Shown: positions 15,484 to 64,000, counted from the stretch's first letter. The stretch: DNA of 64,000 nucleotides from Elusimicrobiota bacterium (GCA_043826435.1 JBDRQF010000061.1:6919-70918), one strand, 5' to 3'. Notes: generated from the letters alone by a model not told the origin. Numbers and translations: made by a program.

Positions 15484-16621
15484 AAAAATTACTGAAAAAA
15501 TCGCTTACTTTATTGCCTGCGGCGCCGCGCTGCAGGTCGCAGAATCCATGATACCGCATCCGGTTCCGGGCGTCCGTTTGGGGCTTGCAAACATGATGAC
15601 CCTGCTCGCCCTTAATTCCATGGGCGCCGGGATGGCTTTCCGGGTCGCTTTTCTCAGACCGATCGTAAGTTCCCTGATACTCGGGAGTTTACTCGGCCCT
15701 TCCTTTTTTATGAGTTTGTCCGGTTCAGTTGCGGCCTTCTTGACGATGTGGTTCACCCGCGCCCTGTTTAGAACGTATATTTCAAATTACGGGGTCTCCA
15801 TTCTTGGGGCGGTTTCCCACAATCTTGCACAGTTAATAATTGCGTATTTTTTTCTGATAAGGCACCCCGGGGTTTTTGTTTTCCTGCCTGTCCTTTTGCT
15901 GAGCGCCCTCTTTTCGGGGTATTTTACGGGGTGGTGCGTCAGTTACGTCGTGAACAAGAACCGTCCTGAACAGGATCTGTGGCAGGGGGGCGTTAATGCG
16001 TCCGGAATAGCGGGAACAACGGGGATAGCGGGAACAACGGAAATGACGGGAATAAACATAGAAAAAGGTTCGGGCAGGACACTGCTGAAAATTTTCCTTG
16101 TCCTTCCTACGATTGTGATTGTTTCGTTGGTTTCGGGACTGAGGCCGTTTATCTATTCTTCCCTGTGGCTCGTGTTTCTGATTGCGGCGTTCAGGGTGCC
16201 GGTGAAACGCCTGCTTGGCAGCATGGCCTTCCTGTGGGTTTTGGTCTTTGCTTCCCTCGTTTCCCATGTTTTGATGACGCCCGGCACGGAAATATTCAGG
16301 ATGGGTTTTTTGAGAATAACGACACAGGGGCTGGAAAACGGCGGGATTGCTTCTTTCAGGATTGTCCTGATAACTATTTCTGCGGGGGTCCTGCTGTGGT
16401 CAACCGGTACGGACGAACTGTTGTCCGGTCTGTTGAGGTTTTTTTCACCTTTAAGGCAGGTGGGTGTGCCGGTGGAAAAGATATTTTATGTTATCGGGCT
16501 GGCGATTGTTTTGTTCCCTTCCGTGTTGCAGAGAGTGCGCGGGACAAAACCCATAAGCATCCACTCTATATTGGACTCAATACACCGGGATTGCCACGCT
16601 CCCTTCGGTCGCTCGCAATGA
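15443..16621 (+). CDS. fusion of Gx transporter (heptaprenyl diphosphate synthase component I-like, S-component-like) with an ECF transporter T component (EcfT/CbiQ-like)
   Basis: The N-terminal half has Gx-family TM helices. The C-terminal half is EcfT-like. They are joined by a GIAGTT repeat linker. The 3' end reads through a REP element. Confidence 0.6.
   Translation: MMDATQRLMGSHTEKITEKIAYFIACGAALQVAESMIPHPVPGVRLGLANMMTLLALNSMGAGMAFRVAFLRPIVSSLILGSLLGPSFFMSLSGSVAAFLTMWFTRALFRTYISNYGVSILGAVSHNLAQLIIAYFFLIRHPGVFVFLPVLLLSALFSGYFTGWCVSYVVNKNRPEQDLWQGGVNASGIAGTTGIAGTTEMTGINIEKGSGRTLLKIFLVLPTIVIVSLVSGLRPFIYSSLWLVFLIAAFRVPVKRLLGSMAFLWVLVFASLVSHVLMTPGTEIFRMGFLRITTQGLENGGIASFRIVLITISAGVLLWSTGTDELLSGLLRFFSPLRQVGVPVEKIFYVIGLAIVLFPSVLQRVRGTKPISIHSILDSIHRDCHAPFGRSQ
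16007..16058 (+). repeat. 18-bp tandem repeat (ATAGCGGGAACAACGGGG, 2 full copies plus a partial) encoding the GIAGTT linker
   Basis: The copies are directly visible. They lie in-frame inside the fusion ORF at the domain junction. Confidence 0.6.
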
Positions 16622-16624
16622 CAC
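16588..16624 (+). repeat. REP-like palindromic element, copy A (GATTGCC-hairpin-TCGCAATGACA)
   Basis: Member of a repeat family that also occurs at 49374-49510, 61772-61809 and 63958-64000. It lies between convergent genes. Confidence 0.5.
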
Positions 16625-17605
16625 TTAGTAGGCAAGTTTTAGTCCTTTAAGTCCCTTTGAAACAAGAGTTGAGCCGTCCGCCTTAACCATTATCACTTCA
16701 ATAGATGCACCCTGGCTTTGAAGTTTTTCAATCAGCGCCATACCCTTTTCGTGCCCCATGACAAAAATCCCGGTGGAGAGGGCGTCTGCGGTGGTGGCGT
16801 CATCACAAATAATCGTTACGCTTATGCACTCCTGCGCCGGCCTGCCCGTTTTTGGGTCAAGTATGTGATGATACCTCCTGCCGTCATGTTCAAAATACCG
16901 TTCGTAATCCCCTGATGTGGCGACCGCCCTGTCCGTCAGACCGGTTACCGCCATCACTGCCCCTCTTTCTTTCCTCGGGTGCTGGATGCCTATTTTCCAG
17001 GTCCTGTCTCCGAAGACGCGCAGATTGCCCCCTGCGTTTACCATGGCGGATTTTATGCCGCACGCCCTCAGTGTCTCTATTGCGCCGTCAACCGCCCAAC
17101 CTTTTGCAATCCCGCTGAGGTCAATCGCGACGCCGTATTTCAAAAAAATCTTATTTTGCCGAAACTTTATGTTCCTGTAATTAACAAGCCGCAGCGCATT
17201 TTTCAAGTCCTTTGCTGGAGGGGGCGACTTTTTGCCCGGGGGTGCGTCGTTCCCGAATTTCCATATCTGCATAAGAGGGACAACGGTTATGTCAAATGCC
17301 CCGCCGGTAAGGACGGAAAATTCAATCGCCCTTTTTATAACCTTATCCGTTATCCTGTCGCACTTGAGCCATTTCTTTTTGTTCAGTTCCGACACCCTGC
17401 TGTTCTTATTGTATTTGTTTAAAATGCCGTCAATTATCTCCATCTCCTGGAATGCCGCGGCGATTGAATCCATCGCCTTTTGCTTGTCGTTTTCAACCAC
17501 CTGTATTTCAACAAAGGTGTTCATCAGGAACTTTGTCTGTTTGTGGATGTTGTTGCTGCAGCCGGCGAATAAAACAAGGAATGGGACAATAATTATTGGA
17601 CGCAT
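16625..17605 (-). CDS. apbE: FAD:protein FMN transferase (ApbE family) lipoprotein
   Basis: 326 aa. Signal peptide with lipobox FAGCS. The ApbE fold motifs GGNLRV and TSGDYERYF are present. Confidence 0.8.
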   Translation of the reverse strand: MRPIIIVPFLVLFAGCSNNIHKQTKFLMNTFVEIQVVENDKQKAMDSIAAAFQEMEIIDGILNKYNKNSRVSELNKKKWLKCDRITDKVIKRAIEFSVLTGGAFDITVVPLMQIWKFGNDAPPGKKSPPPAKDLKNALRLVNYRNIKFRQNKIFLKYGVAIDLSGIAKGWAVDGAIETLRACGIKSAMVNAGGNLRVFGDRTWKIGIQHPRKERGAVMAVTGLTDRAVATSGDYERYFEHDGRRYHHILDPKTGRPAQECISVTIICDDATTADALSTGIFVMGHEKGMALIEKLQSQGASIEVIMVKADGSTLVSKGLKGLKLAY

Positions 17606-30438: not shown

Positions 30439-30463
30439 CATGGAAGAGTTGTCAATCAATTAT
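30395..30463 (+). repeat. 18-bp tandem duplication (CAGCGRYTGGGCATACTC x2), a degenerate REP remnant and the 27-nt TGACA-N9-TGTCA motif
   Basis: The 27-nt sequence TGACATGGAAGAGTTGTCAATCAATTAT is nearly identical to 61805-61831 and ends in the treS ATG. Confidence 0.5.
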
Positions 30464-33400
30464 GTCTAAAGAAGAAAAAAACTTTTCGGCTGAACCTTGC
30501 TGGTATAAAGATGCAATAATTTATGAACTGCATGTAAAAACATTTAATGATAGCGATGGGGACGGTATCGGCGACTTCAAAGGACTTACCCAAAAACTTG
30601 ATTATCTTAAAGGACTCGGCATAACTGCAATATGGCTTCTTCCTTTTTATCCTTCGCCCTTAAAAGACGACGGCTATGACATATCCGATTATTTTGGCAT
30701 CCATCCGAATTACGGTAGTATTAAGGACTTTAAGGAATTCCTGAATGAAGCGCATAAAAGAGGAATAATGGTCATCACCGAACTTATTCTAAACCATACT
30801 TCGGACCAGCACGAATGGTTCAAAAGAGCGAGGGAATCAAAACCCGGTTCGGTGTCCAGAGATTTTTATGTATGGAGCGATACGCCTGAAAAATACAAGG
30901 ATGCACGAATAATTTTTAAGGATTTTGAGACATCTAACTGGGCATGGGACCCTGTCGCAAATGCGTACTACTGGCACCGTTTTTATTCTCATCAGCCGGA
31001 TTTGAATTATGACAACGGACAAGTTCAGAAAGCGGTATTGAAAGTTATAGATTATTGGTTTGATATGGGTATTGATGGTATGCGTCTGGATGCGGTTCCG
31101 TATCTTTTTGAAAAAGAAGGGACGAATTGCGAAAACCTGCCCGAGACCCACGAATTCTTAAAAAAATTAAGGGCGTATGTTGACGGCAAACATAAAAATA
31201 AAATGCTTCTTGCGGAAGCGAACCAGTGGCCGGAAGACGCTTCTGCTTATTTCGCGGACGGCACTGCCTGCCATATGGCGTTTCACTTCCCGATTATGCC
31301 CAGAATGTTTATGGCGATATGGATGGAGGACAGATTTCCCATAATAGATATTATTGAACAAACCCCTGAAATTCCTCAAATATGTCAGTGGGCGCTTTTC
31401 TTAAGAAATCACGATGAATTGACGCTTGAAATGGTTGCCGACGAGGAAAGGGACTACATGTACAGGGTCTATGCAAAAGACCCCAGCGCAAGAATCAACC
31501 TTGGCATCCGCCGCCGTCTGGCACCTCTTCTTGGAAATCACAGAAGAAAAATAGAACTGATGAATTTTTTACTTTTTTCTTTACCCGGCACCCCGGTCAT
31601 TTATTACGGGGATGAAGTTGGAATGGGCGACAATTATTATCTCGGCGACAGAAACGGCGTCCGAACCCCTATGCAATGGAACGCTGATAGAAATGCAGGG
31701 TTTTCAATGGCAAATCCACAGAAACTTTATCTGCCGATTATAATTGACCCGGAATATCATTATGAGTATATCAATGTTGAAAACAGCGGAAGAAACCAGT
31801 CGTCTCTTCTGTGGTGGATGAAAAGAGTCATCGCCGTTCGCAAAAGGTTTAAATCATTTGGAAGAGGGGACATAGAATTTTTACCTTCTGACAATCCTAA
31901 GGTTCTTACATTTATAAGGAAATATCAAGATGAGAATATTCTTGTAGTGATTAATCTGTCGAGGTTTTCACAGGCAGTTGAACTTGACCTTTCAAAGTAT
32001 GCCGGATATTTCCCACAGGAAATATTCAGTAGAAACAAATTCCCGCTGATAAAAGATTCTCCATACACTTTTACTTTAGGGTTTTATGATTATTTTTGGT
32101 TTGTGCTCAGAAAAAAAGAGGATCCCTTGAAAATCACTGAAACGGCCATACCAGAACTAAATATTGGAGAAAAATGGACAGGGGTTATAGACGAAAAGAC
32201 AAAAGAAAACATAGAGAGCGAAGCGCTTCCTTTTTACTTAGAAAAGTGCAGATGGTTCAGGTCTAAAGCAAGGAGAATTCAGTCGGTGAGGATTTCTGAA
32301 AACATAGCGATTGGGAAAAGCCCTTCGGCCACTCAATTACTTTTCCTGGAAGTTTTATATATAGAAGGATTGTCAGAAACATATCTGCTGCCGGTATGTT
32401 TCGCATCAAAAGACGAAGCGGATAAAATTATAAAAGAAAATACCGGCGCGGTTATTGCACGACTGAAATGCAAAGATACGGATGGTATTATTTACGAGGG
32501 CGTTTATAACGATGAGTTTCGCAAAAATATTCTTTTGATGATTGCCAGAAAGGATAGTATTGAGGGATTACATGGAAAACTCATCGCATATCCGGGTAAG
32601 TTTTTGAAAAAATTATTCTACCCTAATAAAATACTGCCTCTTGAAAAGTCGCGGGTTTTGAAAGCAGAACAAAGCAATACTTCTTTTCTATATGGGGAAG
32701 AACTGTTTTTTAAACTTTTCAGGATGCTGGATGAGGGTATAAATCCCGAACTTGAAATTGGAAGGTTTCTTACTGAAAAAACACAGTTTAAGAACGCACC
32801 CTTATTCGCCGGAGCGATAGAGTATATAAGCCCCGGCTTAAAGCCAATGGTTATAGGGATACTTCAAAGTTCAGTTTCAAACGAGGGAGATACATGGAAA
32901 TACACTTTAGATTCTCTGGGAAGATACTACGAGAGAATGCTTGCAAAAAAAAGCGAAGTTCAAAAACTACCGCAAATACCAACTTCAATTATGGAAATCG
33001 CTTATAGCGAAATTCCACCGCTGGTGGGCGAATTGGTCGGTGGTGATTATTTTGAAATGGTACGACTTTTAGGAAAAAGGACGGCAGAGATGCATCTTGC
33101 TCTTTATTCTGAAATGCAAGACGAAAATTTTGTTCCGGAACCCTTTTCAATGCTTTATCAACGTTCACTTTATCAGTCAATGCAGTCGCTTACAAAGAAA
33201 GTTTTTGACGCTCTGCGAAAAAATCAGAAAAATTTGTCGGAAAATGCCAGAGATGAAGTTGTCAAACTACTAAGTTTGGAAAAAGAGATAGTTAATAAGT
33301 TCCAAGTCCTGCTCACCAGGAAGATATCAGCAATGAAAATAAGAATACATGGGGACTACCATCTCGGTCAAGTTCTTTTTACCGGAAACGACTTTATAAT

Positions 33401-33797
33401 CATTGATTTTGAGGGCGAACCTATGAGGTCATTAAGCGAAAGAAGATTTAAAAGATCCCCTTTAAGGGATGTTGCAGGAATGATACGTTCGTTTCATTAT
33501 GCCGCGTACACATCATTTACGAAGGATTTACCTATTAAAATTGAAGATTTTTCCGAAATAGAACCGTGGGCTGTTTTATGGTACAAATACATCTCCGGTG
33601 CATTTTTGAGGTCATACCTTGACACTGTGAAAAACATACCGTTTATTCCACAAGATAGGGAAGAATTCAACATTCTGCTGAATGTATATCTTCTGGAAAA
33701 GGCGGTTTACGAACTCGGGTACGAAATCAATAATCGTCCGGAATGGCTCTTTATTCCATTGAATGGAATTAAACAAATACTGGAAGACCAGAAATGA
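30462..33797 (+). CDS. treS: trehalose synthase (GH13) fused to maltokinase (TreS-Mak/Pep2)
   Basis: 1111 aa. The N-terminal alpha-amylase catalytic domain has WLLPFYPSP and DGMRLDAV. The C-terminal maltokinase has HGDYHLGQVLF and IIDFEGEP. The gene is AT-rich relative to its flanks. Confidence 0.8.
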   Translation: MSKEEKNFSAEPCWYKDAIIYELHVKTFNDSDGDGIGDFKGLTQKLDYLKGLGITAIWLLPFYPSPLKDDGYDISDYFGIHPNYGSIKDFKEFLNEAHKRGIMVITELILNHTSDQHEWFKRARESKPGSVSRDFYVWSDTPEKYKDARIIFKDFETSNWAWDPVANAYYWHRFYSHQPDLNYDNGQVQKAVLKVIDYWFDMGIDGMRLDAVPYLFEKEGTNCENLPETHEFLKKLRAYVDGKHKNKMLLAEANQWPEDASAYFADGTACHMAFHFPIMPRMFMAIWMEDRFPIIDIIEQTPEIPQICQWALFLRNHDELTLEMVADEERDYMYRVYAKDPSARINLGIRRRLAPLLGNHRRKIELMNFLLFSLPGTPVIYYGDEVGMGDNYYLGDRNGVRTPMQWNADRNAGFSMANPQKLYLPIIIDPEYHYEYINVENSGRNQSSLLWWMKRVIAVRKRFKSFGRGDIEFLPSDNPKVLTFIRKYQDENILVVINLSRFSQAVELDLSKYAGYFPQEIFSRNKFPLIKDSPYTFTLGFYDYFWFVLRKKEDPLKITETAIPELNIGEKWTGVIDEKTKENIESEALPFYLEKCRWFRSKARRIQSVRISENIAIGKSPSATQLLFLEVLYIEGLSETYLLPVCFASKDEADKIIKENTGAVIARLKCKDTDGIIYEGVYNDEFRKNILLMIARKDSIEGLHGKLIAYPGKFLKKLFYPNKILPLEKSRVLKAEQSNTSFLYGEELFFKLFRMLDEGINPELEIGRFLTEKTQFKNAPLFAGAIEYISPGLKPMVIGILQSSVSNEGDTWKYTLDSLGRYYERMLAKKSEVQKLPQIPTSIMEIAYSEIPPLVGELVGGDYFEMVRLLGKRTAEMHLALYSEMQDENFVPEPFSMLYQRSLYQSMQSLTKKVFDALRKNQKNLSENARDEVVKLLSLEKEIVNKFQVLLTRKISAMKIRIHGDYHLGQVLFTGNDFIIIDFEGEPMRSLSERRFKRSPLRDVAGMIRSFHYAAYTSFTKDLPIKIEDFSEIEPWAVLWYKYISGAFLRSYLDTVKNIPFIPQDREEFNILLNVYLLEKAVYELGYEINNRPEWLFIPLNGIKQILEDQK

Positions 33798-33901: not shown

Positions 33902-35005
33902 ATGAAAATGGACCGCAATGAGACACGGAAAATAAGGATCGGCAAAACGTTAATCGGCGGCGGCGCTCCTGTAGCCGTGCAGTCAATGACCAAGACGGAC
34001 ACTACGGACGTCTCCGCTACGGTCGCACAGATTAAGGAACTGGAGAAAGCCGGGTGCGAGATAGTCCGGGTAGCCGTGCCGAATATGGAATCCGCAAAAT
34101 GTCTTTCAAAAATAAAAAAAGAAATAAATATCCCGCTTGTGGCGGACGTCCATTTTGACTACAAACTCGCGATGGAATCAATATTACAGGGAGCGGACAA
34201 GATAAGGATTAACCCCGGGAATATCGGGTCAAAGGGAAAGGTCCGGCAGGTCGTTTTACTCGCAGGCGAGAAAAAGATTCCGATAAGGGTGGGCATAAAC
34301 GCCGGCTCGTTGAAAATAACCTTCGGCGGCGCCGGCAGTTCCGGCGGCAGGAAGAAGGAGCGGGTCTCTCCTGACGCAAAAGACATGGTGTCATCCGCCC
34401 TGGATTATATCAAAATGTTTAACGACTGGGGGTTTTTTGATATCGTCATATCGCTTAAATCAAGCGACGTCGTAACCACCGTAGAAGCATACACAAAGTT
34501 TGCAGAAAAATCGGATGCGCCCCTGCACTTAGGCATAACGGAGTCGGGCCCGCCCGGCATAGGGACGGTAAAGTCATCCGTCGGGTTGGGGATACTTCTG
34601 CACCGGGGCATCGGCGACACGATAAGGGTTTCGCTTACTTCAGACCCCGTTGAGGAAGTCCGGGTTGCATGGCTAATCCTTCAATCACTAAATCTCAGAA
34701 ATTATGGTATTGATATAATTTCCTGCCCTACGTGCGCCAGGTGCCGGACTGACATAGTAAAGGTAGTTGAGACGCTCCAGGAAAGGGCAGCGTCACTGCG
34801 GAGCCGCACAGCCGGGAAGCCGCTGAGGGTTGCGATAATGGGCTGCGAGGTAAACGGCCCGGGTGAGGCGTCCCACGCAGACATCGGCATTGCCGCAGGG
34901 AAGAACACGGGGCTTTTGTTTAAACGCGGCAGGCCGGTTAGAAAGATCGCTCCGGACGAGTGGATTGAACAACTTATATTAGAGATAGAACGGTTTGGAG
35001 AATAG
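33902..35005 (+). CDS. ispG: 4-hydroxy-3-methylbut-2-en-1-yl diphosphate synthase (GcpE)
   Basis: IRIGKTLIGGGAPVAVQSMT and CPTCARC cluster. Confidence 0.9.
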   Translation: MKMDRNETRKIRIGKTLIGGGAPVAVQSMTKTDTTDVSATVAQIKELEKAGCEIVRVAVPNMESAKCLSKIKKEINIPLVADVHFDYKLAMESILQGADKIRINPGNIGSKGKVRQVVLLAGEKKIPIRVGINAGSLKITFGGAGSSGGRKKERVSPDAKDMVSSALDYIKMFNDWGFFDIVISLKSSDVVTTVEAYTKFAEKSDAPLHLGITESGPPGIGTVKSSVGLGILLHRGIGDTIRVSLTSDPVEEVRVAWLILQSLNLRNYGIDIISCPTCARCRTDIVKVVETLQERAASLRSRTAGKPLRVAIMGCEVNGPGEASHADIGIAAGKNTGLLFKRGRPVRKIAPDEWIEQLILEIERFGE

Positions 35006-35053
35006 GATGAAGTAGAATTGGGAAAGGTAACTTTATTGTTTAATCAAAAACAC

Positions 35054-35084
35054 TTGACAAGGCGTTTTTGACATTATGTATAAT
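35054..35084 (+). promoter_or_regulatory. sigma70-like promoter (TTGACA ... TGTATAAT extended -10) at the start of a 540-bp leader
   Basis: TTGACA 35054-59. TGTATAAT 35077-84 (the TTGACA-to-TATAAT spacing is 19 nt, and TG is directly adjacent, making an extended -10). Confidence 0.35.
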
Positions 35085-35359
35085 TATTTAGCGGTACATA
35101 AGTATTATTACATAATATGAATACGCATCATTATTGAACTGAAACCTTTCGGTATAGAATCTATCCGCACGGTTATTTTCCCGAACTTAATATCGGGAAA
35201 TCATTCAGTATTAAAAAAACAATAGCGTACATTAAAAAGATTCCGGATAAAAATGCAAAGGTTTTGGCATTATCAAGGTTGAAGGAGATACTTAATCCAT
35301 AAAAATTAACCGCTGCCTGATACCCCCGCCCGGCTGCCGGAATTAAATCATCACAAGTA

Positions 35360-35388
35360 TTGAAGTTTTCGGCAAAATTTTATATAAT
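35360..35388 (+). promoter_or_regulatory. near-consensus promoter TTGAAG-N17-TATAAT upstream of the dinD-like gene
   Basis: Hexamers and spacing were counted directly from the sequence. Confidence 0.45.
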
Positions 35389-35549
35389 GGGAGTGTTGAA
35401 AAAAACTCTATCAATTCTAATCTCCAGAATACACCTGCAAAACATCATAGGCAATATTGTTTTTGATAATTTGCCGGCGAAGTAGAATTTGAGGACAGAA
35501 CCAAAATTAATACCGAAGATTTGGATTATAAATTCGTTAAGCCCTTAAT

Positions 35550-36404
35550 TTGGTGAGAGTAAAATTTATGGATAATACAAAAATCGCCTTATTTAAAGGC
35601 AAAAAAATCAGACGAGTCATTTACCAAAATGAATGGTGGTTTTCGGTTGTTGATGTGGTCCAAGCATTAACCGATCAAACTGACGATTATACTGCCAGGA
35701 AATATTGGAATAAACTCGCGCAGCGGTTACGAGAAGAAGGAAGCGAGGTGGTGACATTTTGTCACCGACTGAAATTGGAGGCATCCGATGGAAAAAAATA
35801 TGAAACCGATTCTGCCAATACCGAAGGTGTCTTTCGTATTATTCAGTCCATTCCTTCGCCAAAAGCCGAACCGTTTAAACGATGGCTAGCAAAGGTGGGC
35901 TATGAAAGAGTGCAGGAAATTGAAAATCCAGAACTGGCAACTAAACGGACGCGTATGCTTTACAAACTCAAAGGTTATTCTGACGATTGGATTGAAAAAA
36001 GAATGCGCGGAATTGCTATCCGGGAGGAATTGACTGATGAGTGGCAGAAAAGAGGCGCGAGAGAACAGAGAGAATATGAAATTTTAACCGCAGAGATTTC
36101 CAAAGCGACTTTTGGCATAACTCCAAGCCAGTATAAGAAAATTAAAAAACTCAAGCGGGAAAACCTGCGTGATCATATGAATGACTTAGAATTGATTTTT
36201 ACAATGTTAGGTGAACGCTCAACAACTGAAATTCACAGGACAGAAGATTCAAAAGGTGTAAGCAATCTTAAAAAAGATGCCCAAGCCGGCGGTGATATTG
36301 CCGGCAATGCTCGCAGGCGACTGGAAAAAAGATTAGGGAAATCAATCGTCTCAAAAGAAAATTATTTAAGAGAACTGGAAAGCCAGAAGAAACTAAAAGG
36401 ATAA
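35550..36404 (+). CDS. dinD: DinD/RhuM-family protein with N-terminal Bro-N domain (DNA-damage-inducible protein D-like)
   Basis: KIRRVIYQNEWWFSVVDVVQAL is Bro-N. The C-terminal part matches the RhuM/DinD family layout. The true start may be ATG 35565. Confidence 0.65.
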   Translation: MVRVKFMDNTKIALFKGKKIRRVIYQNEWWFSVVDVVQALTDQTDDYTARKYWNKLAQRLREEGSEVVTFCHRLKLEASDGKKYETDSANTEGVFRIIQSIPSPKAEPFKRWLAKVGYERVQEIENPELATKRTRMLYKLKGYSDDWIEKRMRGIAIREELTDEWQKRGAREQREYEILTAEISKATFGITPSQYKKIKKLKRENLRDHMNDLELIFTMLGERSTTEIHRTEDSKGVSNLKKDAQAGGDIAGNARRRLEKRLGKSIVSKENYLRELESQKKLKG

Positions 36405-36648
36405 TTGTGTCCAAATCATACCCCTTAGAAAAGAACAATTAAAACATTTAGAAAAAGATAAAGACAAAATCAGAAACTTATTCAAAAACTCCGAAAACGA
36501 AAACATTGACATAGATATATTACTATTATTATCTTCAAAAGTCCTCAGTCCAAATATAAATGCGGATATTATTTTGACTTGGTTAGACACTTACAATCTT
36601 TATAAATATGAGATGTTTAAGCATGCCGATGATTTATATCGTAAATAA
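36397..36648 (+). pseudogene. start-less 84-codon ORF remnant (C-terminal fragment of an unknown protein)
   Basis: It is open in frame from 36397 to stop 36646-48 with no usable start. It is AT-rich and overlaps the dinD-like stop. Confidence 0.3.
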
Positions 36649-36716
36649 AATTGCCTCAGGGTAAAAATCAGTTCGGGGGTCTATCGGAAATTATAAAGCA
36701 AGCACGGAGGAGTCTA

Positions 36717-38141
36717 ATGAAAAAATACGTAATTCTATTATTGTTTTTGTCGCACTGCACGCTTTCTTACGGAACTAAATTACCTGATAATATAGTCTTG
36801 TCTGTTATGTATTTTGATAACGCATCAAAATCCCATGATTTTGATTGGATGAGGAAAGGTATTGCGGATATGGTTATTAGCGACCTTTCAAAAATCAAAA
36901 AAATAAAAGTTGTTCAACGAGAAAATTTACAAAAAGTTTTAGAAGAACAGAAACTTGCTCTGACAGGTATTATTAGTGAAGACAGTGCAGTAAAAGCGGG
37001 GAATATATTAGGGGCAAATGTTATTCTATTAGGGTCATTTATTGTTTTTAACAATGAGATAAGAATAGACGGTCAGCTTATTGATATTAAAACTTCTGAA
37101 GTTATAGATGGTGTAATGGTTGCCGGAAAAGTTTCAAAATTCTTATTATTAGAAAAACAGTTTAGCATGGAATTATTAAAAAAATTAGGTGTTAAATTGA
37201 CACCAGAAAATCAAAAATTAATTAAACATATAGAAACAGAAAATTTAGATGCACTTAAATATAACTATGAAGGCATTAGTGCAATAGATGACAAGCAAAT
37301 TGCAAAAGCATTGGAACTGTTCAAAAAAGCAACTCAAATAGCCCCTGAATATAAATCAGCCCAAAATAATTACGCTTATTTCTCAAAAAACGTATCGGGT
37401 GAAAATATATTTTCTGAAGCATTTTCACAACTTGACAATAAAACAGATTTTTTAACCACTTCTAAAAAGTTGCTTGAAGATTTAGCAGACGAGATTGTTA
37501 AAAAAGGATTTATAATCCGAATAGGAGAACCAATTATTTCAACGGACATAAATAACCCTGACAAGGTTAACATAAAAGTAGATGTAAAAATAGCCCTTGA
37601 TAAAAAAGTGAGGAACAAGATTTTTAAAGCGCAACAATCTTTGAAAGGAGGATGGTGTAAAGCAGGCGGGGTTAGTTATGGCATTTCCACGTCTGCATAT
37701 TTTGCAGCATATTATGCAGATTTCTCGTATTCAAGACTGTGGGTTGACTACGCTCCTGGGTGTATTGCTTTTTTTGGTAAAGGTGCTGATTTTTATGAAA
37801 AAGAAGAAAAAGAATATCGTTTGAACAAATATTTTTATAATCTATTAAAAGATCTAAAAGTTGTTTTTATTTTTGCAGATAAAGATGGCAATACAATCAT
37901 TGAAGTTATCGGTGCCAGTAACCCCATACCCGGGCGGGGGCGTACGGGCAGAGACCATAGGGTTTCCACTTGTGATTTGCCATTTAAGGTTCTCGGAATG
38001 CTACGCTGGAACAGTGATTTCCATTTTTTTGTTATATGGGCGAAAGAAAGAGTGGGACAAATAATATTAGCAGAAGATACGGCCGTATTGCTGAAAGATG
38101 CAAAGAAAATAACCTCAATTATATCCAGAGTAGAGAGATAA
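36717..38141 (+). CDS. secreted/lipoprotein with CsgG-like N-terminal domain and TPR-like segment, C-terminal domain unknown
   Basis: Signal peptide MKKYVILLLFLSHC after RBS GGAGG. The CsgG/HfaB-like pattern is VLSVMYFDN.S...G.ADM...L....V.RE.L..VLEEQ.L..TG......K.G..LGA..ILLGS. Very AT-rich. Confidence 0.5.
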   Translation: MKKYVILLLFLSHCTLSYGTKLPDNIVLSVMYFDNASKSHDFDWMRKGIADMVISDLSKIKKIKVVQRENLQKVLEEQKLALTGIISEDSAVKAGNILGANVILLGSFIVFNNEIRIDGQLIDIKTSEVIDGVMVAGKVSKFLLLEKQFSMELLKKLGVKLTPENQKLIKHIETENLDALKYNYEGISAIDDKQIAKALELFKKATQIAPEYKSAQNNYAYFSKNVSGENIFSEAFSQLDNKTDFLTTSKKLLEDLADEIVKKGFIIRIGEPIISTDINNPDKVNIKVDVKIALDKKVRNKIFKAQQSLKGGWCKAGGVSYGISTSAYFAAYYADFSYSRLWVDYAPGCIAFFGKGADFYEKEEKEYRLNKYFYNLLKDLKVVFIFADKDGNTIIEVIGASNPIPGRGRTGRDHRVSTCDLPFKVLGMLRWNSDFHFFVIWAKERVGQIILAEDTAVLLKDAKKITSIISRVER

Positions 38142-38148
38142 ACATATC

Positions 38149-39930
38149 ATGAAACTGTCAAATTATTTTATACCTACACTCAGGGAGGACCCGTCAGACG
38201 CGGACACAATTTCCACGGTTCTGATGATGCGTTCCGGAATGATAAGAAAATTAGCCAGCGGTATTTATGAATGGCTGCCGTTAGGCCTCCGGGTGCTGAA
38301 AAAGGTTGAGCAGATTGTCCGGGAGGAAATGAACGCAATCGGCGGGCAGGAGGTGTGGTTGCCTGTACTCTTGCCAAAGGACCTGTGGGAGGAAACGGGC
38401 AGGTGGCAGTTATATGGGAAGGAGTTGTGTCGTATAAAAGACAGAAAGGGCAATGATTTCTGTCTGGGACCCACCCACGAGGAAGTAATTACTGACATTG
38501 TTAGAAAAGAGGTTAGGTCATACAGACAACTCCCAGTGATGTTCTACCAGTTCGGCGTAAAATTCAGGGACGAGATTCGCCCGAGGTTCGGCGTGATGAG
38601 GGCAAGGGAATTCTTGATGAAGGACGCTTACTCCTTCCATGCCACGGAGGAAGATGCGGAGAAGTATTACCAGGAGGTCTTCAGGGCGTATTCAAAAATC
38701 GTAGAGAGGTGCGGTTTTAATTTCAGGGCTGTTGAGGCGGCTACGGGCGCAATAGGGGGAAAATTCTCGCACGAGTTTATGGTCCTGGCGGACACGGGAG
38801 AAGAGGAGATTGTCTGGTGCAGGTGCGGCTATTCTGCAAATGTTGAAAAAGCAGAATGTACGCAGGAAGAGAGCCCTGCGGGAGATATCAGCCCTGATAA
38901 AGTAGAAGGAGTCCATTCTGCCGACGATGTCGTCCCTGCTGATTTGGAAGAGGTCCACACACCAGGGCTCCGCAGCGTGGAGGAGGTCGGAAGTTTTTTG
39001 AACGCCCAGCCGGATAAGTTTATAAAATCCCTAATATATCTCTGTGACGGTGTCCCTGTAATGGTTCTCGTCCGTGGCGATTATGAAGTCAATGAAATAA
39101 AACTCAGGGAGCATTTTTCCTGCCAGGAACTTACTCTGGCTGACTCGCAGACAATAGAAAAAATAACCGGAGCACCTGTCGGTTTCGCAGGGCCCGTGAA
39201 TATAAAAAATAAATCAGGGGGTGGCGTAAAGGGTAGTATGAAAATAGTTGCCGATTATTCCGTTAAATCAATTGTTAACGCTATTTCAGGAGCGAACAAA
39301 AAGGACTATCACTTAAAGAATATCAATTTCGGCAGGGATTACCAGCCCGACGAGGTTTTTGACCTCAGGAAGGTTACGAAAGGTGACGCCTGCCCCAGGT
39401 GTCTCGCCGGAGGTAAGACCGTCCCGCTTAATTTTTCCCACGGCATAGAGGTGGGGCACACCTTCAAATTAGGGACGAAATATTCAAAGGCGATGGAGGC
39501 GACTTTCCTTGATACGGCCGGCAAAGAGCAGTTTTTCATAATGGGGTGTTACGGCATAGGCGTTTCAAGAATAGTCGCCGCTGCCATTGAACAGTCCCAT
39601 GACGAGAACGGAATTATCTGGAATGAAAACCTGGCGCCTTTTGATGTTTTGATTCTACCGATTGATTACAACGACCCTGAGATAAGGAAAACGAGTGACA
39701 GGATTTATTCTGCGCTAAGGGACAACGGTTTTGAAGTGCTGATGGACGACAGGGATGAAAGACCCGGCGTGAAATTTAAGGATGCGGATTTAATAGGCGT
39801 GCCGGTGCGCATTACGGTTAGCAAAAGAAATTTAACCGAAAAAAAGATTGAAATAAAATTCAGAAACCGGAAGGATCTCTTTTTGGTAGCAGAGAGCGAG
39901 ATGCTGGAGACGATTAAAAGGACTCTCTGA
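38149..39930 (+). CDS. proS: proline--tRNA ligase
   Basis: 593 aa. Class II aaRS motifs and a bacterial-type insertion domain are present. Confidence 0.9.
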   Translation: MKLSNYFIPTLREDPSDADTISTVLMMRSGMIRKLASGIYEWLPLGLRVLKKVEQIVREEMNAIGGQEVWLPVLLPKDLWEETGRWQLYGKELCRIKDRKGNDFCLGPTHEEVITDIVRKEVRSYRQLPVMFYQFGVKFRDEIRPRFGVMRAREFLMKDAYSFHATEEDAEKYYQEVFRAYSKIVERCGFNFRAVEAATGAIGGKFSHEFMVLADTGEEEIVWCRCGYSANVEKAECTQEESPAGDISPDKVEGVHSADDVVPADLEEVHTPGLRSVEEVGSFLNAQPDKFIKSLIYLCDGVPVMVLVRGDYEVNEIKLREHFSCQELTLADSQTIEKITGAPVGFAGPVNIKNKSGGGVKGSMKIVADYSVKSIVNAISGANKKDYHLKNINFGRDYQPDEVFDLRKVTKGDACPRCLAGGKTVPLNFSHGIEVGHTFKLGTKYSKAMEATFLDTAGKEQFFIMGCYGIGVSRIVAAAIEQSHDENGIIWNENLAPFDVLILPIDYNDPEIRKTSDRIYSALRDNGFEVLMDDRDERPGVKFKDADLIGVPVRITVSKRNLTEKKIEIKFRNRKDLFLVAESEMLETIKRTL

Positions 39931-39946: not shown

Positions 39947-40294
39947 ATGGAAATACCGTCCCTCGAGCAACTGACATTTGACGAAATCAATGCAATACTG
40001 GTTCACAAATGGTATTTGAGTGAAAAAGCACGGTATGATGTCGGGATGGAGTTTGCCAAAAACGATTTCTTCAGGAATCATTCAAGAGCATGGCGTCAGA
40101 AAAAAATGCATGAGGATGTCGTCCGGCAAAAAGAAGAGATATTGAGACACAAATGGTATCTATCAGAGAAATTGGGATACGATGTAGGGATACAAAAAGC
40201 GGCACTTGACTGGATACTCTGCGGATATGCCGAACACTGGCGGTGCTGTACAGGACCCTATGAGAAAAAAAGAAAAAAATGTTCGTCCACTTGA
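39947..40294 (+). CDS. hypothetical protein with two HKWYLSEK-x-YDVG repeats and a Cys-rich C-terminus
   Basis: Internal duplication: ILVHKWYLSEKARYDVGMEFA and ILRHKWYLSEKLGYDVGIQKA. It resembles an HKW-motif DUF (possibly DUF4032); that assignment is low confidence. Confidence 0.4.
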   Translation: MEIPSLEQLTFDEINAILVHKWYLSEKARYDVGMEFAKNDFFRNHSRAWRQKKMHEDVVRQKEEILRHKWYLSEKLGYDVGIQKAALDWILCGYAEHWRCCTGPYEKKRKKCSST

Positions 40295-40856: not shown

Positions 40857-42152
40857 ATGACAGAATTTAAAAGTGAACTTTTTCCTGTCCTTGAACAGAT
40901 TGAAAAAGAAAAGGGCATAAAGAAGGAGGAGATAATCAGGGTGATAGAGTCCGCCCTTATTTCCGCCTACAAGAAGCATGTAGGCAGGAACGTGAACGTT
41001 GAGGCGGTCGTGGACGTGGAGACGTCCGAGGTGAAGGCGTTTGTTGTCAAAAAGGTTGTTGACGACGTTTCCAACCCGAACGTGGAAATTTCGCTTGACG
41101 ATGCGAAAGGCATTTCGCCGGATGCGTCCGTGGGCCAGGATTTAAGGATACGATTAGACACGCAGGATTTCGCCCGTATAGCCGCCCAGACAGCAAAGCA
41201 GGTCATCATTCAAAAAATCAGGGAATCCGAAAGGGCAAGCATGTACGACGATTTCAAAAAGAAGGAAGGGGCAGCGCTGACCGGCGCCGTATATAAATTC
41301 GTTGACAAGAATATAATCGTTGACCTTGGTAAGACCGAGGGGATTATACCCGCCAGGGAACAGGTATTTTCTGAAAGGTTTCGTATAGGAGAGCACCTGA
41401 AGGTGCTGCTCGTGAACGTTGAAAGGGGCCCGCGTGGGCCGCGGCTTTTGCTGTCCAGGAACCGCACGGAACTGGTAAAGAGATTGTTTGAGATGGATGT
41501 CCCTGAGATTTATGAAAAAATCGTAGAGATAAAACAGATAGTCAGGGCGCCGGGGATAAGGTCCAAGGTTGTCGTCAGGTCAAACAATTTAAAGGTTGAC
41601 CCTGTGGGAGCGTGCGTGGGAGTGAAGGGCTCAAGGGTTAAACCGATTATTGACGAACTCAGGGGCGAGAGGATTGATTTGATATTGTATTCGGAGGAAT
41701 CTACAAAATTCATAGCGTCCGCATTTTCACCCGCAAAGGTTGAAAATGTCAACGTTATTGATGCAACGAGGAAAAAGGCGGAGGTAATTGTTAAAGATGA
41801 TGTACTGTCCCTCGCCATAGGCAAGGGCGGGGCTAACGTTAACCTTGTATGCAGGTTGACGGGATGGCGCATTGATGTCCGCTCTGAAACGCAGAAGAAA
41901 GAAGCGGCGAAGGAAAAAGAAGTCCTATCGGTGGAGCAACTCACCAAACTTGACGGTGTCGGCCCTAAACTTGCAGAGACACTTTTCAAGGCGGGACTCA
42001 GGAGTATAGACAAACTTGCAAATATAAAATTGGAGGACCTGGTTACGCTCCAGGGAGTCGGAGAGAAAACAGCCCAGAAAATAATTGATTCAGCGAAAAA
42101 CACACTTGAAGATAAAAAAGATAAAGGAAATGGAAAAGAAAAACAAGGATAA
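40857..42152 (+). CDS. nusA: transcription termination/antitermination factor NusA
   Basis: S1 and KH domains and C-terminal HhH repeats. Confidence 0.9.
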   Translation: MTEFKSELFPVLEQIEKEKGIKKEEIIRVIESALISAYKKHVGRNVNVEAVVDVETSEVKAFVVKKVVDDVSNPNVEISLDDAKGISPDASVGQDLRIRLDTQDFARIAAQTAKQVIIQKIRESERASMYDDFKKKEGAALTGAVYKFVDKNIIVDLGKTEGIIPAREQVFSERFRIGEHLKVLLVNVERGPRGPRLLLSRNRTELVKRLFEMDVPEIYEKIVEIKQIVRAPGIRSKVVVRSNNLKVDPVGACVGVKGSRVKPIIDELRGERIDLILYSEESTKFIASAFSPAKVENVNVIDATRKKAEVIVKDDVLSLAIGKGGANVNLVCRLTGWRIDVRSETQKKEAAKEKEVLSVEQLTKLDGVGPKLAETLFKAGLRSIDKLANIKLEDLVTLQGVGEKTAQKIIDSAKNTLEDKKDKGNGKEKQG

Positions 42153-44424
42153 GAAAAAAACCGGCGCAGAAAAAACTGCTGTACCGGGCAAGGCACCAGT
42201 TAAACCTGTAAAGCCCGTGGCTAAGCCGGAGGCGCCTGTTGCAAAAATAAAGCCCGCAGTTAAACCTGTAAAGCCCGTGGCTAAACCGGAGGCGCCTGTT
42301 GCAAAAGTAAAGCCCGCAGTTAAACCTGTAAAGCCCGTGGCTAAGCCGGAGACGCCTGTTGCAAAAGTAAAGCCCGCAGTTAAACCTGTAAAGCCCGTGG
42401 CTAAGCCGGAGACGCCTGTTACAAAAGTAAAGCCCGCAGTTAAACGGGTTGCGAAACCAAAATTAAAACCGAAAGAAATAGTGGTGGTAAAACCGCCGGT
42501 TGAAAAGGTGAGAACAGTTAAAACAGTTGGGGAGATAAAGCCACCTGCAGTTGAACGTCCGGCGCCCCCGCCCCCGACTTCGCCCCCGTCCCCGACTGCG
42601 CCCCCGGCACAGTCCCCGCCTCCGTCTCCACCCCCGATCCCGGAGCCCCATGCTCCCCTGCCGAAAGTTCCGGTTATAGACAAAAAGATAATTCTTCCAA
42701 AAATAAAAATAAACGAACTTTCTACAATAAGAGAGATTGCGGGGAAGATAAACAAAAGCCCTTCCGATCTGCTGAAGAAACTTCTGGGGATGGGTATCGT
42801 TTCAACCATCAACCAGCGTCTGGACCGCGACACGGCGAGTGTTTTACTCCACGAGTACGACTACGACATTGATTTTATAAATATTTATGAAGAGGAAATT
42901 TCAGCGAAATCGGAGGACAAGAAATTACTTAAACCGAGGCCCCCTGTCGTTACCGTTATGGGGCACGTTGACCACGGCAAGACGACCCTGCTTGATACGA
43001 TAAGAAAATCAAAGATTACCGAGAAGGAACACGGCGGAATTACCCAGCATATAGGCGCCTACATGGTGAAGACGCCGAAGGGCGAAATAGTGTTTCTGGA
43101 TACGCCGGGACACCAGGCATTTACCGCTATGCGCGCGCACGGCTCAAAAATTACCGATATAGTGGTGCTTGTGGTGGCAGCCGATGACAACGTTATGCCT
43201 CAGACGGTGGAGGCCATTGACCATGCGCGTGCAGCAGGGGTCCCCATAATAGTCGCCATCAACAAGATAGACGTTGCAACTGCAAACCCGCAGGGCACCA
43301 AACAGAAACTGACCCAGTACGGACTGATACCTGACGACTGGGGCGGGGATACCCTGACGGTTGAGATATCTGCAAGGAACAACATAAACATTGACAAACT
43401 ACTTGAATCCATCCTCTTCAAAGCGGAACTCATGGAACTTAAGGCAAACCCGGAAAGACCTGCAAGAGGGGTTGTGGTGGAGTCACGGATGGACCCGAGG
43501 AAAGGGCCGGTGGCGACTGTCCTCGTGCAAGCAGGCACCTTGAAAGCCGGTGATGCCCTGATTTGCGGTTTTACCGGCGGGAAAGTCAGGGCTATGCTGA
43601 ACGATACGGGCCACAGGATAAATGCCGCGGGGCCGAGCGTTCCGGTTGAAATACTCGGGCTTGAATCGGTCGTTTCTGCGGGTGACGCTTGTTTTGTGGT
43701 GAAAGACGAGAGGTTGGCCAGGGAGATAATAAGTAAAAGAAAGGCCGCCCTGAGCGCCCAGAGGGTGGATGCAAGAAAGAGGGTTTCACTGGAAGACATC
43801 GGCGCAGGCAGGGTGAAACAACTGGACATCATCTTAAAGACGGACGTCTCCGGTTCGCTGGATGCAATAAAGGATGCCATTGAGCACCTGCATTCAGATG
43901 AAATAAAGTTGAATATCGTCCACGGCGGGGTGGGGGCGATAAATGAGTCCGACGTCAACCTCGCTATTGCTTCAAATGCAATTATAATCGGGTTCAACGT
44001 GCGGGCGAACCCCAATGCCGAAACGATGGCAAAAAAGGAGGGTATTGATACAAGGACTTACAGGATAATATACGAACTCATAAGCAGTTTAAAATCGGCA
44101 ATGGAAGGCCTCGTTGAGCCGAAGATGGTTGAAACAACAACGGGCAGGGTTGAAATCAAAAAGGTCTTCCAGATAACCGGTTCCGGGGCGGTTGCGGGAT
44201 GCATGGTGATTGACGGAAAGATTAACCGCTCGTCAAAGGTCAGGTTACTGAGGGACGATGTGATTGTTTATGAAGGCGCCATCAAGTCATTAAAAAGATT
44301 TAAGGACGACGTAAGGGAAGTTGAAAAAGGGTATGAGTGCGGGGTGTCACTGGAAAATTACAACGACATAAAGGCAGGAGATATAATTGAGGTGTACGTC
44401 CAGGAAAAGGCAAAAGCGATCTGA
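42130..44424 (+). CDS. infB: translation initiation factor IF-2
   Basis: GTPase domain ([21 protein letters not shown]). The N-terminal domain is repetitive and Pro-rich. Confidence 0.9.
42199..42448 (+). repeat. 60-bp tandem repeat (about 4.2 copies) encoding [20 protein letters not shown] units in the IF-2 N-terminal domain
   Basis: The units are near-identical and differ only by a few substitutions (gag/gac, aaa/gta). Confidence 0.75.
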
Positions 44425-49366: not shown

Positions 49367-49373
49367 AACCAAT

Positions 49374-49510
49374 GGTTGTCTTTGCGAGGAACGTTAGCGA
49401 CGAAGCAATCTCATTTTTACCGACGAGATTGCCACGCTCCCTTCGGTCGCTCGCAACGACATTTTGATTGCCACCCACCACGCCCCTGCGGGGCTCGTGG
49501 TCGCAATGAC
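49374..49510 (+). repeat. cluster of three REP-like elements (one inverted, two direct)
   Basis: 49374-49414 is the reverse complement of the 63958-64000 copy. 49422-49461 and 49466-49510 are direct copies with different internal hairpins. Confidence 0.55.
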
Positions 49511-57450: not shown

Positions 57451-58536
57451 ATGGTAATGGTAAAGGATGAAAGGATTAAGGCGCTCCAGGCGGCAATTAC
57501 GCAGATAGAGAAGGACTTTGGCAAAGAAGCGATAATGAAGTTGGGCGAAAAGGGTCCAAGATTTGTCATGGATGTAATTCCGACGGGGGCGCTGCCGCTG
57601 GATATAGCAACGGGGGTGGGCGGGATTCCCCGCGGCCGGGTGGTTGAAATATTCGGGCCTGAGGCAGGCGGAAAATCAACCCTGGCGATGATAATCGTCG
57701 GACAGGCGCAGAAATTAGGCGGGATTGCGGCATACATTGACGCAGAGAATGCCTTTGACCCCACGTATGCAAAAAAACTCGGTGTTGATACGGACAACCT
57801 TTTTATATCCCAGCCAGATTCGGGCGAGCAGGCGCTTGAGATTACCGAGCGGCTTGTCCGTTCTGGCGCGATGGACATAATTGTCATTGACTCGGTGGCG
57901 GCGCTTGTCCCCAAAGCAGAGATAGAAGGAGAGATGGGTGATCCGCAGATGGGTCTCCAGGCCCGGCTTATGAGCCAGGCGTTGAGAAAACTTACTTCTA
58001 TCATCTCAAAGACAAGGGCGGTCGTCATTTTCATAAACCAGATAAGGCACAAGATAGGCGTTATGTTCGGCAACCCGGAAACGACCCCGGGCGGGCTGGC
58101 GCTGAAGTTTTATTCATCCATCCGCCTGGACATCAGGGCGATAGAGAGAATAAAGAAAAGCGATGTGGTCGTCGGTAACAGGATAAGGGTGAAGGTTGTA
58201 AAGAACAAGGTAGCCCCGCCTTTTAAGACGGCGGAGTTTGAACTGATATTCGGCGAGGGGATACTGAAAGAAAGTTACCTTATTGACCTTGCCGTTGCCA
58301 ACGGCATTATGGAAAAATCAGGCACGTGGCTTTTATACAAGGGTGAAAAGATAGGCCAGGGAATGGAACAGGCGAGGGCATATTTAAAAGAGAACCTCGC
58401 AGTCAGCCAGGAGATTGAAAACTTATTGAGGGAAAAACTTTTACCGAAAACCGAAGTAAAGCAGGAGAAAAAAGAAGCGGAAGAACTGAAGGAAAAAAAC
58501 ATTACAGAAGGGCACACCAAAAAACACAAAGGATAA
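57451..58536 (+). CDS. recA: recombinase RecA
   Basis: Walker [11 protein letters not shown]1/L2 loops. Confidence 0.92.
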
Positions 58537-63957: not shown

Positions 63958-64000
63958 GATGAGATTGCTTCGTCGCTAACGCTCCTCGCAATGACAACCA
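63958..64000 (+). repeat. REP-like palindromic element, copy D (may continue past the window end)
   Basis: GATGAGATTGCTTCGTCGCTAACGCTCCTCGCAATGACAACCA. Its inverted twin is at 49374-49414. Confidence 0.45.

Follow-up and report, generated by a model that had tools for sequence, protein, structure and literature searches.

Between ispG and proS, in a stretch of 64,000 nucleotides (nt) from the metagenome-assembled genome of an Elusimicrobiota bacterium (GCA_043826435.1, JBDRQF010000061.1:6919-70918; the whole stretch is called the window here), lie 3,143 bp of foreign DNA of low guanine-cytosine (GC) content (positions 35006-38148). This island carries two genes, one encoding a Bro-N protein (gene 1) and one a secreted protein with a CsgG-like N-terminus (gene 2). 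A first-pass annotation had presented them as a possible accessory or defence module or prophage remnant with an SOS theme, preceded by a promoter-rich leader. Our analysis favours, with a probability of roughly 70%, a patchwork of horizontally transferred DNA in a genome of ~47-49% GC, in which two unrelated cargo genes and gene debris came to lie together and do not form a functional unit. The apparent SOS-themed two-gene module with its regulatory leader would then be a routine patch of horizontal transfer, and the leader largely gene debris. Both genes are members of known, poorly characterised families.

The island is an insertion between ispG and proS

The sharp fall in GC content noted in the first-pass annotation is real. 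GC content is 0.35 over 35006-38148, against 0.52 in ispG, 0.48 in proS and 0.47 in the whole window, where 2-kb segments mostly range from 0.47 to 0.52. At third codon positions the values are 0.60 for ispG and 0.55 for proS, against 0.36 for gene 1 and 0.26 for gene 2. All features lie on the plus strand, in the order ispG (GcpE; 33902-35005), 562 nt without a convincing gene (35006-35567), gene 1 (35568-36404), a 312-nt spacer, gene 2 (36717-38141) and proS (38149-39930), which starts 7 nt past the end of gene 2. We placed the starts of the island genes at the ATG codons 35568 and 36717, where the homologues of both proteins begin, and not at the upstream TTG codons. Both island proteins and ProS have identical entries at NCBI under 'Elusimicrobiota bacterium', the latter as 'proline--tRNA ligase [Elusimicrobiota bacterium]' (100% identity).

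Synteny was followed from ProS homologues (60-74% identical) to their contigs; a scan of the genome collection with IspG gave distant phyla only (37-52% identity). A gene with GcpE Pfam domains lies immediately upstream of proS in relatives. In the Elusimicrobiota loci L115 and L116/L117, whose ProS proteins are 70% and 67% identical to that of the window, the gap between GcpE and proS measures 56 and 10 nt. The two nearest relatives by ProS (74% and 72%) have a pterin-binding gene upstream of proS and no ispG there. An independent metagenome contig of 2.8 kb covers 35169-37986 with 6 mismatches (99.8% identity), and an assembly chimera is ruled out because this contig shows the same arrangement. 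The island is an insertion into a very short ispG-proS junction, and the synteny comparison bears out both the horizontal acquisition and the borders that had been proposed. No direct or inverted repeat longer than a 7-mer bounds it. Neither in nor beside the island did we find an integrase, a tRNA, att repeats or phage structural genes; its list of open reading frames (ORFs) comprises the two genes, and the window has no tRNA.

Debris of a type III restriction-modification operon upstream of gene 1

The origin of the sequence upstream of gene 1 could be traced through three loci with intact operons (L019, L020 and L046), all in the order Mod - Bro - Res. Their Bro proteins are 77-86% identical to gene 1 and among the closest in the fetched loci. 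The genes are separated by a few nt in L020 and L046, and by ~55 nt before res in L019. By their profile matches, Mod of L020 belongs to the type III methyltransferases (PADLOC MTase_III, 2.4e-181, reaching the last profile position; Pfam N6_N4_Mtase) and Res to the type III restriction helicases (PADLOC REase_III, 4e-26; Pfam ResIII).

Remnants of both genes lie on the plus strand ahead of gene 1. The mod 3' tail (35476-35556) comprises the last 26 codons (35476-35553) and the stop (GEVEFEDRTKINTEDLDYKFVKPLIW in translation) and is 88% identical over 26 amino acids (aa) to the C-terminus of L020 Mod (E 1e-9). Relative to L020, 66 of 81 nt are identical and the codon differences are 10 synonymous and 3 non-synonymous, so that this tail was coding until fairly recently or is still constrained. 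Its 3' end forms the ribosome-binding site of the Bro gene, with the conserved motif GGTG(G/A)GAG. The res 5' head (35420-35485) comprises the first 21 codons (35420-35482; ISRIHLQNIIGNIVFDNLPAK and a stop), with the start changed from ATG to ATC and a TGG codon changed to TAG. In blastx and tblastn it matched the N-terminus of Res at 62% (L020) and 57% (L046) over 21 aa (E 1e-3 and 5e-4). Here 49 of 66 nt agree with L020, and the 2 synonymous and 8 non-synonymous codon differences indicate that the piece is decaying.

The res head precedes the mod tail, which is the reverse of the operon order, and the two pieces overlap in GAAGTAG. The junction is GAAGTAGAATT at 35479-35489, in the context TTGCCGGCGAAGTAGAATTTGAGGAC. 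With 1 mismatch allowed, this 11-mer occurs in the 64-kb window only there and at 35009. The latter copy (35009-35019) stands 4 nt past the ispG stop and is followed by ~15 nt that are still mod-like. It belongs to the left edge of the island (35006-35031, plus strand), 26 nt that resemble the start of the mod 3' tail: GATGAAGTAGAATTGGGAAAGGTAAC compared with GATGAAGTGGAATTTGCAGACGGGAC in mod of L019 gave 19 identities in 26 positions by manual count. In L020, GAAGTGG occurs in mod, 87 nt upstream of bro, and again in res, 67 nt downstream, and is thus a short direct repeat that brackets the segment made of mod tail, bro and res head. L046 has the downstream copy, and its contig begins too near bro to show the upstream one. 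We also searched viral contigs with the junction 18-mer (CCGGCGAAGTRGAATTTG); the 9 matches were in unrelated sequence, none beside Bro, Mod or Res, and we take them as chance.

A candidate second res 5' head (36407-36442, plus strand; VSKSYPLEKNN and a stop) begins 2 nt past the Bro stop, the site of the res start in intact operons. Its sequence GTGTCCAAATCATACC corresponds to ATGTCTAAACTATATC in L046 and ATGTCCAGACTCTATT in L020, and a longer comparison was not significant. No intact mod or res is present in the island, and beyond the 26 mod and 21 res codons nothing matched Mod or Res of L020; the island therefore cannot restrict or modify DNA.

Similar losses were seen elsewhere. L022 and L023 retain a mod tail without a mod gene, and L022 has a res head as well. 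In L022 (967-2090), where Bro stands alone, the mod tail starts 45 nt after a tRNA-Pro(GGG) gene and is split by a 34-nt GC-rich insert, and bro is followed by 28 nt of a res head and by a terminator hairpin. The tail-bearing copies are not clustered in a neighbour-joining tree, which carries no support values. Apparently, mod and res have been lost with bro kept more than once.

The remaining 388 nt of the upstream region (35032-35419; GC 0.33) are AT-rich DNA with promoter-like sites and an imperfect palindrome (35068-35121). They showed no similarity to the Bro gene (by nhmmer or Smith-Waterman), to the fetched loci or to the rest of the window. A simple tandem duplication predicts a decayed Bro copy in 35006-35419, and there was no sign of such a copy: nhmmer with a Bro DNA profile of 78 sequences (the window and 77 loci) found nothing at E<=100, and Smith-Waterman scores were at shuffle level.

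These comparisons suggest that the left part of the island (35006 to ~36440) consists of leftovers of a mod - bro - res operon, of which the mod tail and one or two res heads remain beside the intact bro gene. The order of res head and mod tail can arise only if the segment from mod tail to res head was duplicated in tandem or passed through a circular form, and this is the history we propose. The breakpoint would be GAAGTRG, a motif that flanks bro on either side in the intact operons and would also form the left edge of the island. It could reflect a microhomology-mediated rearrangement or a true mobile cassette.

The spacer and expression of the island genes

An 83-codon open frame without a start codon, previously annotated as an ORF remnant, does exist at 36397-36650 (plus strand). 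Its translation had no match in Pfam, phage records, the fetched loci or the neighbours of gene 2 homologues. We also compared the spacer (36405-36716) with res as a possible decayed copy, and the result was not significant. The spacer also has a promoter-like site at 36506-36535, which agrees at 10 of 12 positions, and no convincing terminator was predicted between ispG and proS. The island genes are probably expressed from chance AT-rich promoters, the best at 35360-35388 and 36506-36535, together with read-through from ispG, which is plausible because all four genes are co-oriented and no convincing terminator separates them.

Gene 1 encodes a conserved Bro-N protein of a candidate defence family

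Gene 1 is intact and encodes a Bro-N/DinD-like protein of 278 aa. The Bro-N domain recognized in the first-pass annotation (PF02498; aa 19-115 when the ORF is counted from its TTG start) scored 50.7 bits (2.9e-13), well above the Pfam cut-off of 25.6. The protein further matched the PADLOC candidate PDC-S13 (PDLC04920; 4e-117, aa 1-275 against profile positions 1-275 of 286) and PHROG 15286 (2e-91); NCBIfam gave no hit. These profile matches support its assignment as a phage-type Bro-N protein of the candidate defence family PDC-S13.

The family is large and widely distributed. All 8000 scored candidates passed E<=1e-3, and the best 120 were 79-90% identical and came from Patescibacteria, Omnitrophota, Nitrospinota, Acetothermia, Desantisbacteria and the archaeon Altiarchaeum. 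Members occur on 13 viral contigs at 41-62% identity (one partial match reached 75%) and on plasmids at up to 65%. Compared with relatives, non-synonymous divergence (dN) was 0.10-0.15, the proportion of synonymous differences (pS) 0.68-0.76, which is saturated, and the ratio of non-synonymous to synonymous divergence (dN/dS) below 0.07. Saturated synonymous sites with low dN indicate long and strong purifying selection on the gene and not a very recent transfer.

The genomic context of the family is variable. Among 93 Bro loci we found no conserved neighbour and no CsgG-like gene. Defence genes were a minority of the 113 immediate neighbours (Cas1 up to 6, Cas4 4, Cas7 3, ResIII 4, N6_N4 methyltransferase 3, RhuM 2), and the remaining families listed were mostly housekeeping ones such as tRNA synthetases. 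Besides the type III operons, members stand inside CRISPR-Cas loci. On the Arcobacter cloacae plasmid pACLO (NZ_CP053834.1, 4482-6947), the cas4 and cas1b genes of a type I-B system enclose a member, at distances of 18 and 51 nt. Several metagenome loci, L042 (4760-8526) among them, have the order Cas7 - Bro - Cas4/Cas1. Our literature search on PDC-S13, on DinD with restriction-modification or defence islands, on DdrC with DinD and on Bro-N with type III or CRISPR systems found nothing relevant.

In the AlphaFold2 model of the protein (mean predicted local distance difference test, pLDDT, 80), two beta-hairpin/helix units precede a C-terminal half made up of helices only, and no catalytic domain was detected. 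The only significant fold matches in the PDB were six chains of Deinococcus DdrC (7QVB, 7UDI and 8U0G; E 5.5e-6 to 1e-3, probability 1.00), while sequence searches of the PDB with gene 1, gene 2 and the Bro profile had no hits. In the viral structure library BFVD, the matches were proteins of Bro-N, KilA-N and repressor-domain or antirepressor type.

The product of the surviving gene would thus be a non-enzymatic DNA-binding protein, with a Bro-N and a C-terminal helical domain, that acts alone. The placement of the family in DNA-cutting systems and the resemblance to DinD and DdrC suggest that the DNA it binds would probably be broken or recombining and that it might modulate events after cutting; such a role could explain why the gene recurs in DNA-cutting defence operons and persists after their decay. 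A bolder proposal, which we regard as speculative and unlikely, is that PDC-S13 is a guest gene that nests in such operons (between mod and res, or between cas4 or cas7 and cas1 in type I-B/I-C systems), is duplicated or excised at short repeats like GAAGTRG, outlives the host operon, and acts as a DdrC-like binder of broken DNA that modulates the fate of DNA after cutting. If this were true, the protein might block recombinational rescue of cleaved phage DNA or protect the host chromosome, and the window would show an end state, with the guest left alone amid the scars of its operon. The family offers leads for studying DNA-end-binding proteins that cooperate with restriction or CRISPR systems.

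Gene 2 encodes a secreted protein with a CsgG-related N-terminal domain

Gene 2 (36717-38141, plus strand) encodes a protein of 474 aa with a signal peptide, an alpha/beta domain (~25-155), TPR-like helices (~160-225) and a lineage-specific C-terminal part (~240-474). NCBI names it 'CsgG/HfaB family protein', and Pfam CsgG (PF03783) matched with 4.3e-13 and 49.5 bits against a cut-off of 20.8. The match is restricted to the N-terminus and covers positions 13-109 of the 210 in the profile; LpoB and TPR gave weaker Pfam hits. The first-pass description of a secreted protein with a CsgG/HfaB pattern therefore stands for secretion and for the N-terminal match, and fails for the features that define CsgG, which the protein lacks. 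Its designation as a lipoprotein was not upheld. The candidate lipobox reads L-S-H-C, with His at position -1, and Cys14 is absent from the two full-length homologues (P0002 and P0003), which keep the hydrophobic signal sequence. Judged from this comparison, the protein is secreted but probably not lipidated.

An exhaustive HMMER search found 11,935 representatives at E<=1e-3; for most of the 150 best listed, the match does not extend past the first ~310 aa. Many of the representatives are 420-470 aa long and align to residues 1-310, and some have several domain copies or TPR arrays. Within the 150 best listed, resemblance to gene 2 past about residue 375 is confined to P0002 and P0003. These two full-length homologues are 57% and 44% identical to it. 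Relative to the homologue in Elusimicrobiota genome GCA_043802785.1 (L016), dN was 0.15 for the N-terminal 300 residues and 0.56 for the C-terminal part. The structural model is confident over most of aa 25-220, where pLDDT is mainly ~80-96 and falls to 67-72 at ~70-90, and it is poor after ~225. Foldseek ranked LpoB first (E 2e-6, TMt 0.64-0.72), followed by the TolB N-domain (TolB 2.7e-5), the CadC periplasmic domain, GNA1162 and PelC (1.4e-4); CsgG came after these, with TMt 0.28-0.38.

Neighbouring genes gave no constant partner. The full-length homologue in L016 lies beside HEPN/nucleotidyltransferase and zeta-toxin genes, and the other one beside DUF433/DUF5615 on a short contig. Neither has a Bro gene or ispG/proS nearby, and the two share no small neighbour gene. 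More distant members lie among envelope genes (SurA-like, OmpA-like, TPR). Across the homologue loci the neighbours included toxin-antitoxin genes, UDP-glucose pyrophosphorylase, and OmpA-like and TPR genes, and no conserved partner of gene 2 was found. Partners of curli or holdfast systems (csgE/F, hfaA/D) are absent from the island, where the neighbours of gene 2 are the Bro gene and proS. We propose that the fast-evolving C-terminal domain is tethered to a partner in the envelope, probably through the LpoB/TolB-N-type scaffold and the TPR-like helices.

The L016 region around this homologue (1-21815) has an architecture of its own, in which the housekeeping genes tyrS, thi4 (duplicated) and ilvC are interleaved with Fic, an MvaI/BcnI restriction-modification pair, HEPN/nucleotidyltransferase, a zeta toxin and a MazE-like gene. 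The architecture of this genome is very mosaic.

Alternative explanations

That the Bro-N and CsgG-like genes form one functional operon, a module for defence or an accessory task whose DNA-binding sensor would control the envelope protein or work together with it, is suggested by their arrangement: they lie on the same strand, 312 nt apart and with no predicted terminator between them, both have a foreign base composition, and one insertion holds both. Such a module is nevertheless very unlikely. None of the 93 Bro loci has a CsgG-like neighbour, or indeed any conserved neighbour, the full-length homologues of gene 2 adjoin HEPN/nucleotidyltransferase or DUF433/DUF5615 and not Bro, gene 2 had no PADLOC hit, and the spacer contains a promoter-like site of its own. 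We likewise consider it highly improbable that the 562 nt upstream of gene 1 serve the Bro gene as a functional regulatory leader or small RNA, possibly under SOS/LexA control, although the region is, as first described, a long non-coding stretch, and both promoters named in the first-pass annotation are present. TTGAAG-N17-TATAAT lies at 35360-35388, and the extended -10 element TGTATAAT at 35077-35084 has TTGACA 19 nt upstream (TTGACA-N19-TGTATAAT, 35054-35084). These are two good sigma-70-like promoters, the imperfect palindrome at 35068-35121 overlaps the one at 35054-35084, and dinD of E. coli is SOS-induced. The number of promoter-like sites, however, is at chance level (10 against 11.1 +/- 3.9 in shuffles), which removes the ground for calling the leader promoter-rich. 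Nor did the proposed hairpins or small RNA find support: the RNA fold had z = -1.52, with 5 of 100 shuffles folding as well, and Rfam gave no leader match at E<=1. A LexA-box-like site (CTGT-N8-ACAG or GAAC-N4-GTTC, 1 mismatch allowed) is absent from 35006-35567, with the reservation that this consensus may not be that of Elusimicrobiota, and the SOS theme has no sequence support. Conservation with other Bro loci is confined to the last ~90 nt, which are mod coding sequence. A regulatory leader is thus not supported, and the region consists partly of restriction-modification gene debris.

A prophage or satellite remnant, with the Bro-N gene as an antirepressor, would fit the typical occurrence of Bro-N in phage antirepressors, the weak PHROG 'Ant' hits (6e-7 to 1e-3), the BFVD matches to Bro-N, KilA-N and repressor-domain proteins, and the family members on 13 viral contigs. 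Yet the island and its borders have none of the phage hallmarks (integrase, tRNA, att repeats, structural genes), the flanking debris comes from a restriction-modification operon and not from a phage, and the nearest homologues are chromosomal genes whose surroundings are restriction-modification, CRISPR or housekeeping ones; there is only a slim chance, about as small as for the regulatory leader, that the island descends from a prophage. A mobile cassette of mod tail, bro and res head, moved by site-specific recombination at the core GAAGTRGAA(TT) between defence operons or other loci, is improbable. It would account for the core flanking bro on both sides in L020 and downstream in L046, for the circle-type junction in the window exactly at the core, with a second exact copy as the left edge, and for the L022 mod tail that starts within a few nt of the same point beside a tRNA-Pro gene. 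Against this, no recombinase gene is present in or near the cassette, the core of 7-11 nt is ordinary mod and res coding sequence, and removal of the cassette would, to judge from the sequences, leave neither gene in frame. Moreover, most Bro loci lack such a motif at their borders, the junction 18-mer gave only chance matches in viral contigs, and the tail-bearing copies are scattered in the neighbour-joining tree.

We thus prefer the patchwork of unrelated cargo genes and debris, and several observations weigh against it or against its parts. The ProS of the closest relative is just 74% identical, which limits both the dating of the insertion and the question of whether the two genes arrived jointly. 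Nothing, not even decayed Bro, was matched by the 388 nt that separate the left-edge motif from the res head, so a simple tandem duplication requires an extra deletion or replacement step and the full history is not reconstructable. The mod tail is much better kept than the res head or the left-edge copy; either it may still be under selection or the events may differ in age. The candidate second res head at 36407 is too short for statistics. Both island genes may be co-transcribed. Most Bro loci are not beside defence genes, and the defence role of PDC-S13 is a candidate assignment for which we found no experimental paper in the literature searched. Finally, only one of the five AlphaFold2 models of the gene 1 protein was confident, and the TM-scores with DdrC are low (0.31-0.49).

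Other features of the window

Downstream in the window, recA (57451-58536) is followed by a 565-aa fusion (58640-60337) of a Peptidase_S24 domain (LexA/UmuD-type, aa 17-131, 3.7e-29) with an N6_N4 DNA methyltransferase, and then by an MvaI/BcnI-family restriction endonuclease (60341-61042), in a region of ~0.33 GC. If self-cleaving, an S24 domain on a methyltransferase would be an unusual coupling of restriction-modification to RecA activation.

Upstream of ispG lies a TreS-maltokinase fusion (alpha-amylase and Mak_N_cap; 30462-33797), whose GC content of 0.40 is far lower than that of the genome. Relatives carry acetyl-CoA-synthase genes (CdhD, pterin-binding) or rseP at this site, and the fusion may be a further acquisition. 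Between proS and rimP, which adjoin each other in relatives, lies a 115-aa ORF (39947-40294) containing two DUF4032-like repeats (HKWYLSEK...), so that this conserved string of genes has taken up a second small insertion. At the nusA/infB boundary (42130-42489) there is a tandem array of 60-nt units, with five overlapping 120-nt copies at 60-nt spacing, the central ones 93-94% identical, which probably encodes a repetitive linker.

Two dispersed repeat families were also seen. A direct-repeat pair of ~41 nt (beginning CGGGATTGCCACGCTCCCTTCGGTCGCTCGCAATGACA) is located at 16586-16626 and 49424-49464, and a 42-nt inverted-repeat pair at 49373-49414 and 63959-64000 shares with it the motifs GATTGC and CGCAATGACA. 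They look like a small intergenic REP/MITE-like family.

Comparison with known systems

The fragments at 35420-35556 go back to a type III restriction-modification operon (Mod and Res) such as L019, L020 and L046 have in intact form. In the literature searched we found no description of a third gene lodged between mod and res. Our comparisons place PDC-S13, which ranks among the most widespread and conserved of the single-gene defence candidates, inside type III operons, and relatives of it inside CRISPR-Cas loci, a nesting likewise not described there. PDC-S13 is a solo gene that sometimes stands inside defence loci; here it lies between housekeeping genes, with the restriction-modification debris as the sole trace of defence.

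RhuM genes are often embedded in type I restriction-modification loci. In our data, RhuM was a neighbour of Bro in 2-3 of the fetched loci. The earlier assignment of gene 1 to the RhuM type was not confirmed, as PF13310 gave no hit at E<=0.1 and hhalign a probability of 13%; local similarity to a RhuM protein (BLASTP 3e-5, aa 72-162) falls in the second half of Bro-N.

DinD (PcsA) of E. coli is SOS-induced and has been reported to inhibit RecA filaments. It resembles the gene 1 protein in size (274 vs 278 aa) and in architecture, with a Bro-N domain of its own at the N-terminus and a helical C-terminal part. The two proteins nonetheless show no pairwise similarity (BLASTP E=4.8), gene 1 has no LexA-box-like site upstream, and it is not an orthologue of dinD. 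An hhalign comparison with the C-terminal 100 aa of DinD gave E 4e-4 and a probability of 34%, with a shared motif KGLK..(L)DHM..EL. A DinD-like architecture is hence a fair description, while the first-pass term 'homologue' overstated the relationship.

DdrC is a damage-induced DNA-binding protein with a winged helix preceded by a beta-hairpin and a four-helix bundle, for which its authors found no structural homologue (PMC9303277). The model of gene 1 shows a similar order of elements over both domains, whereas identity is 12-14% and the PDB chains give no sequence-level match. We treat the similarity of the predicted fold, which would tie the Bro-N/DinD family to DdrC, as a lead and not as established homology.

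The gene 2 protein has a signal peptide, a Pfam CsgG match above the cut-off and a predicted fold of the wider CsgG, LpoB, TolB-N, PelC and FlgO kind. It differs from the CsgG channel in that it is without the half that forms the membrane hairpins of the barrel and without the conserved lipobox Cys, and its chain continues into the TPR-like helices and a lineage-specific C-terminal part of 230 aa. The description that fits best is an accessory protein of the periplasm or envelope with a docking domain of LpoB/TolB-N type, and not a curli-type channel.

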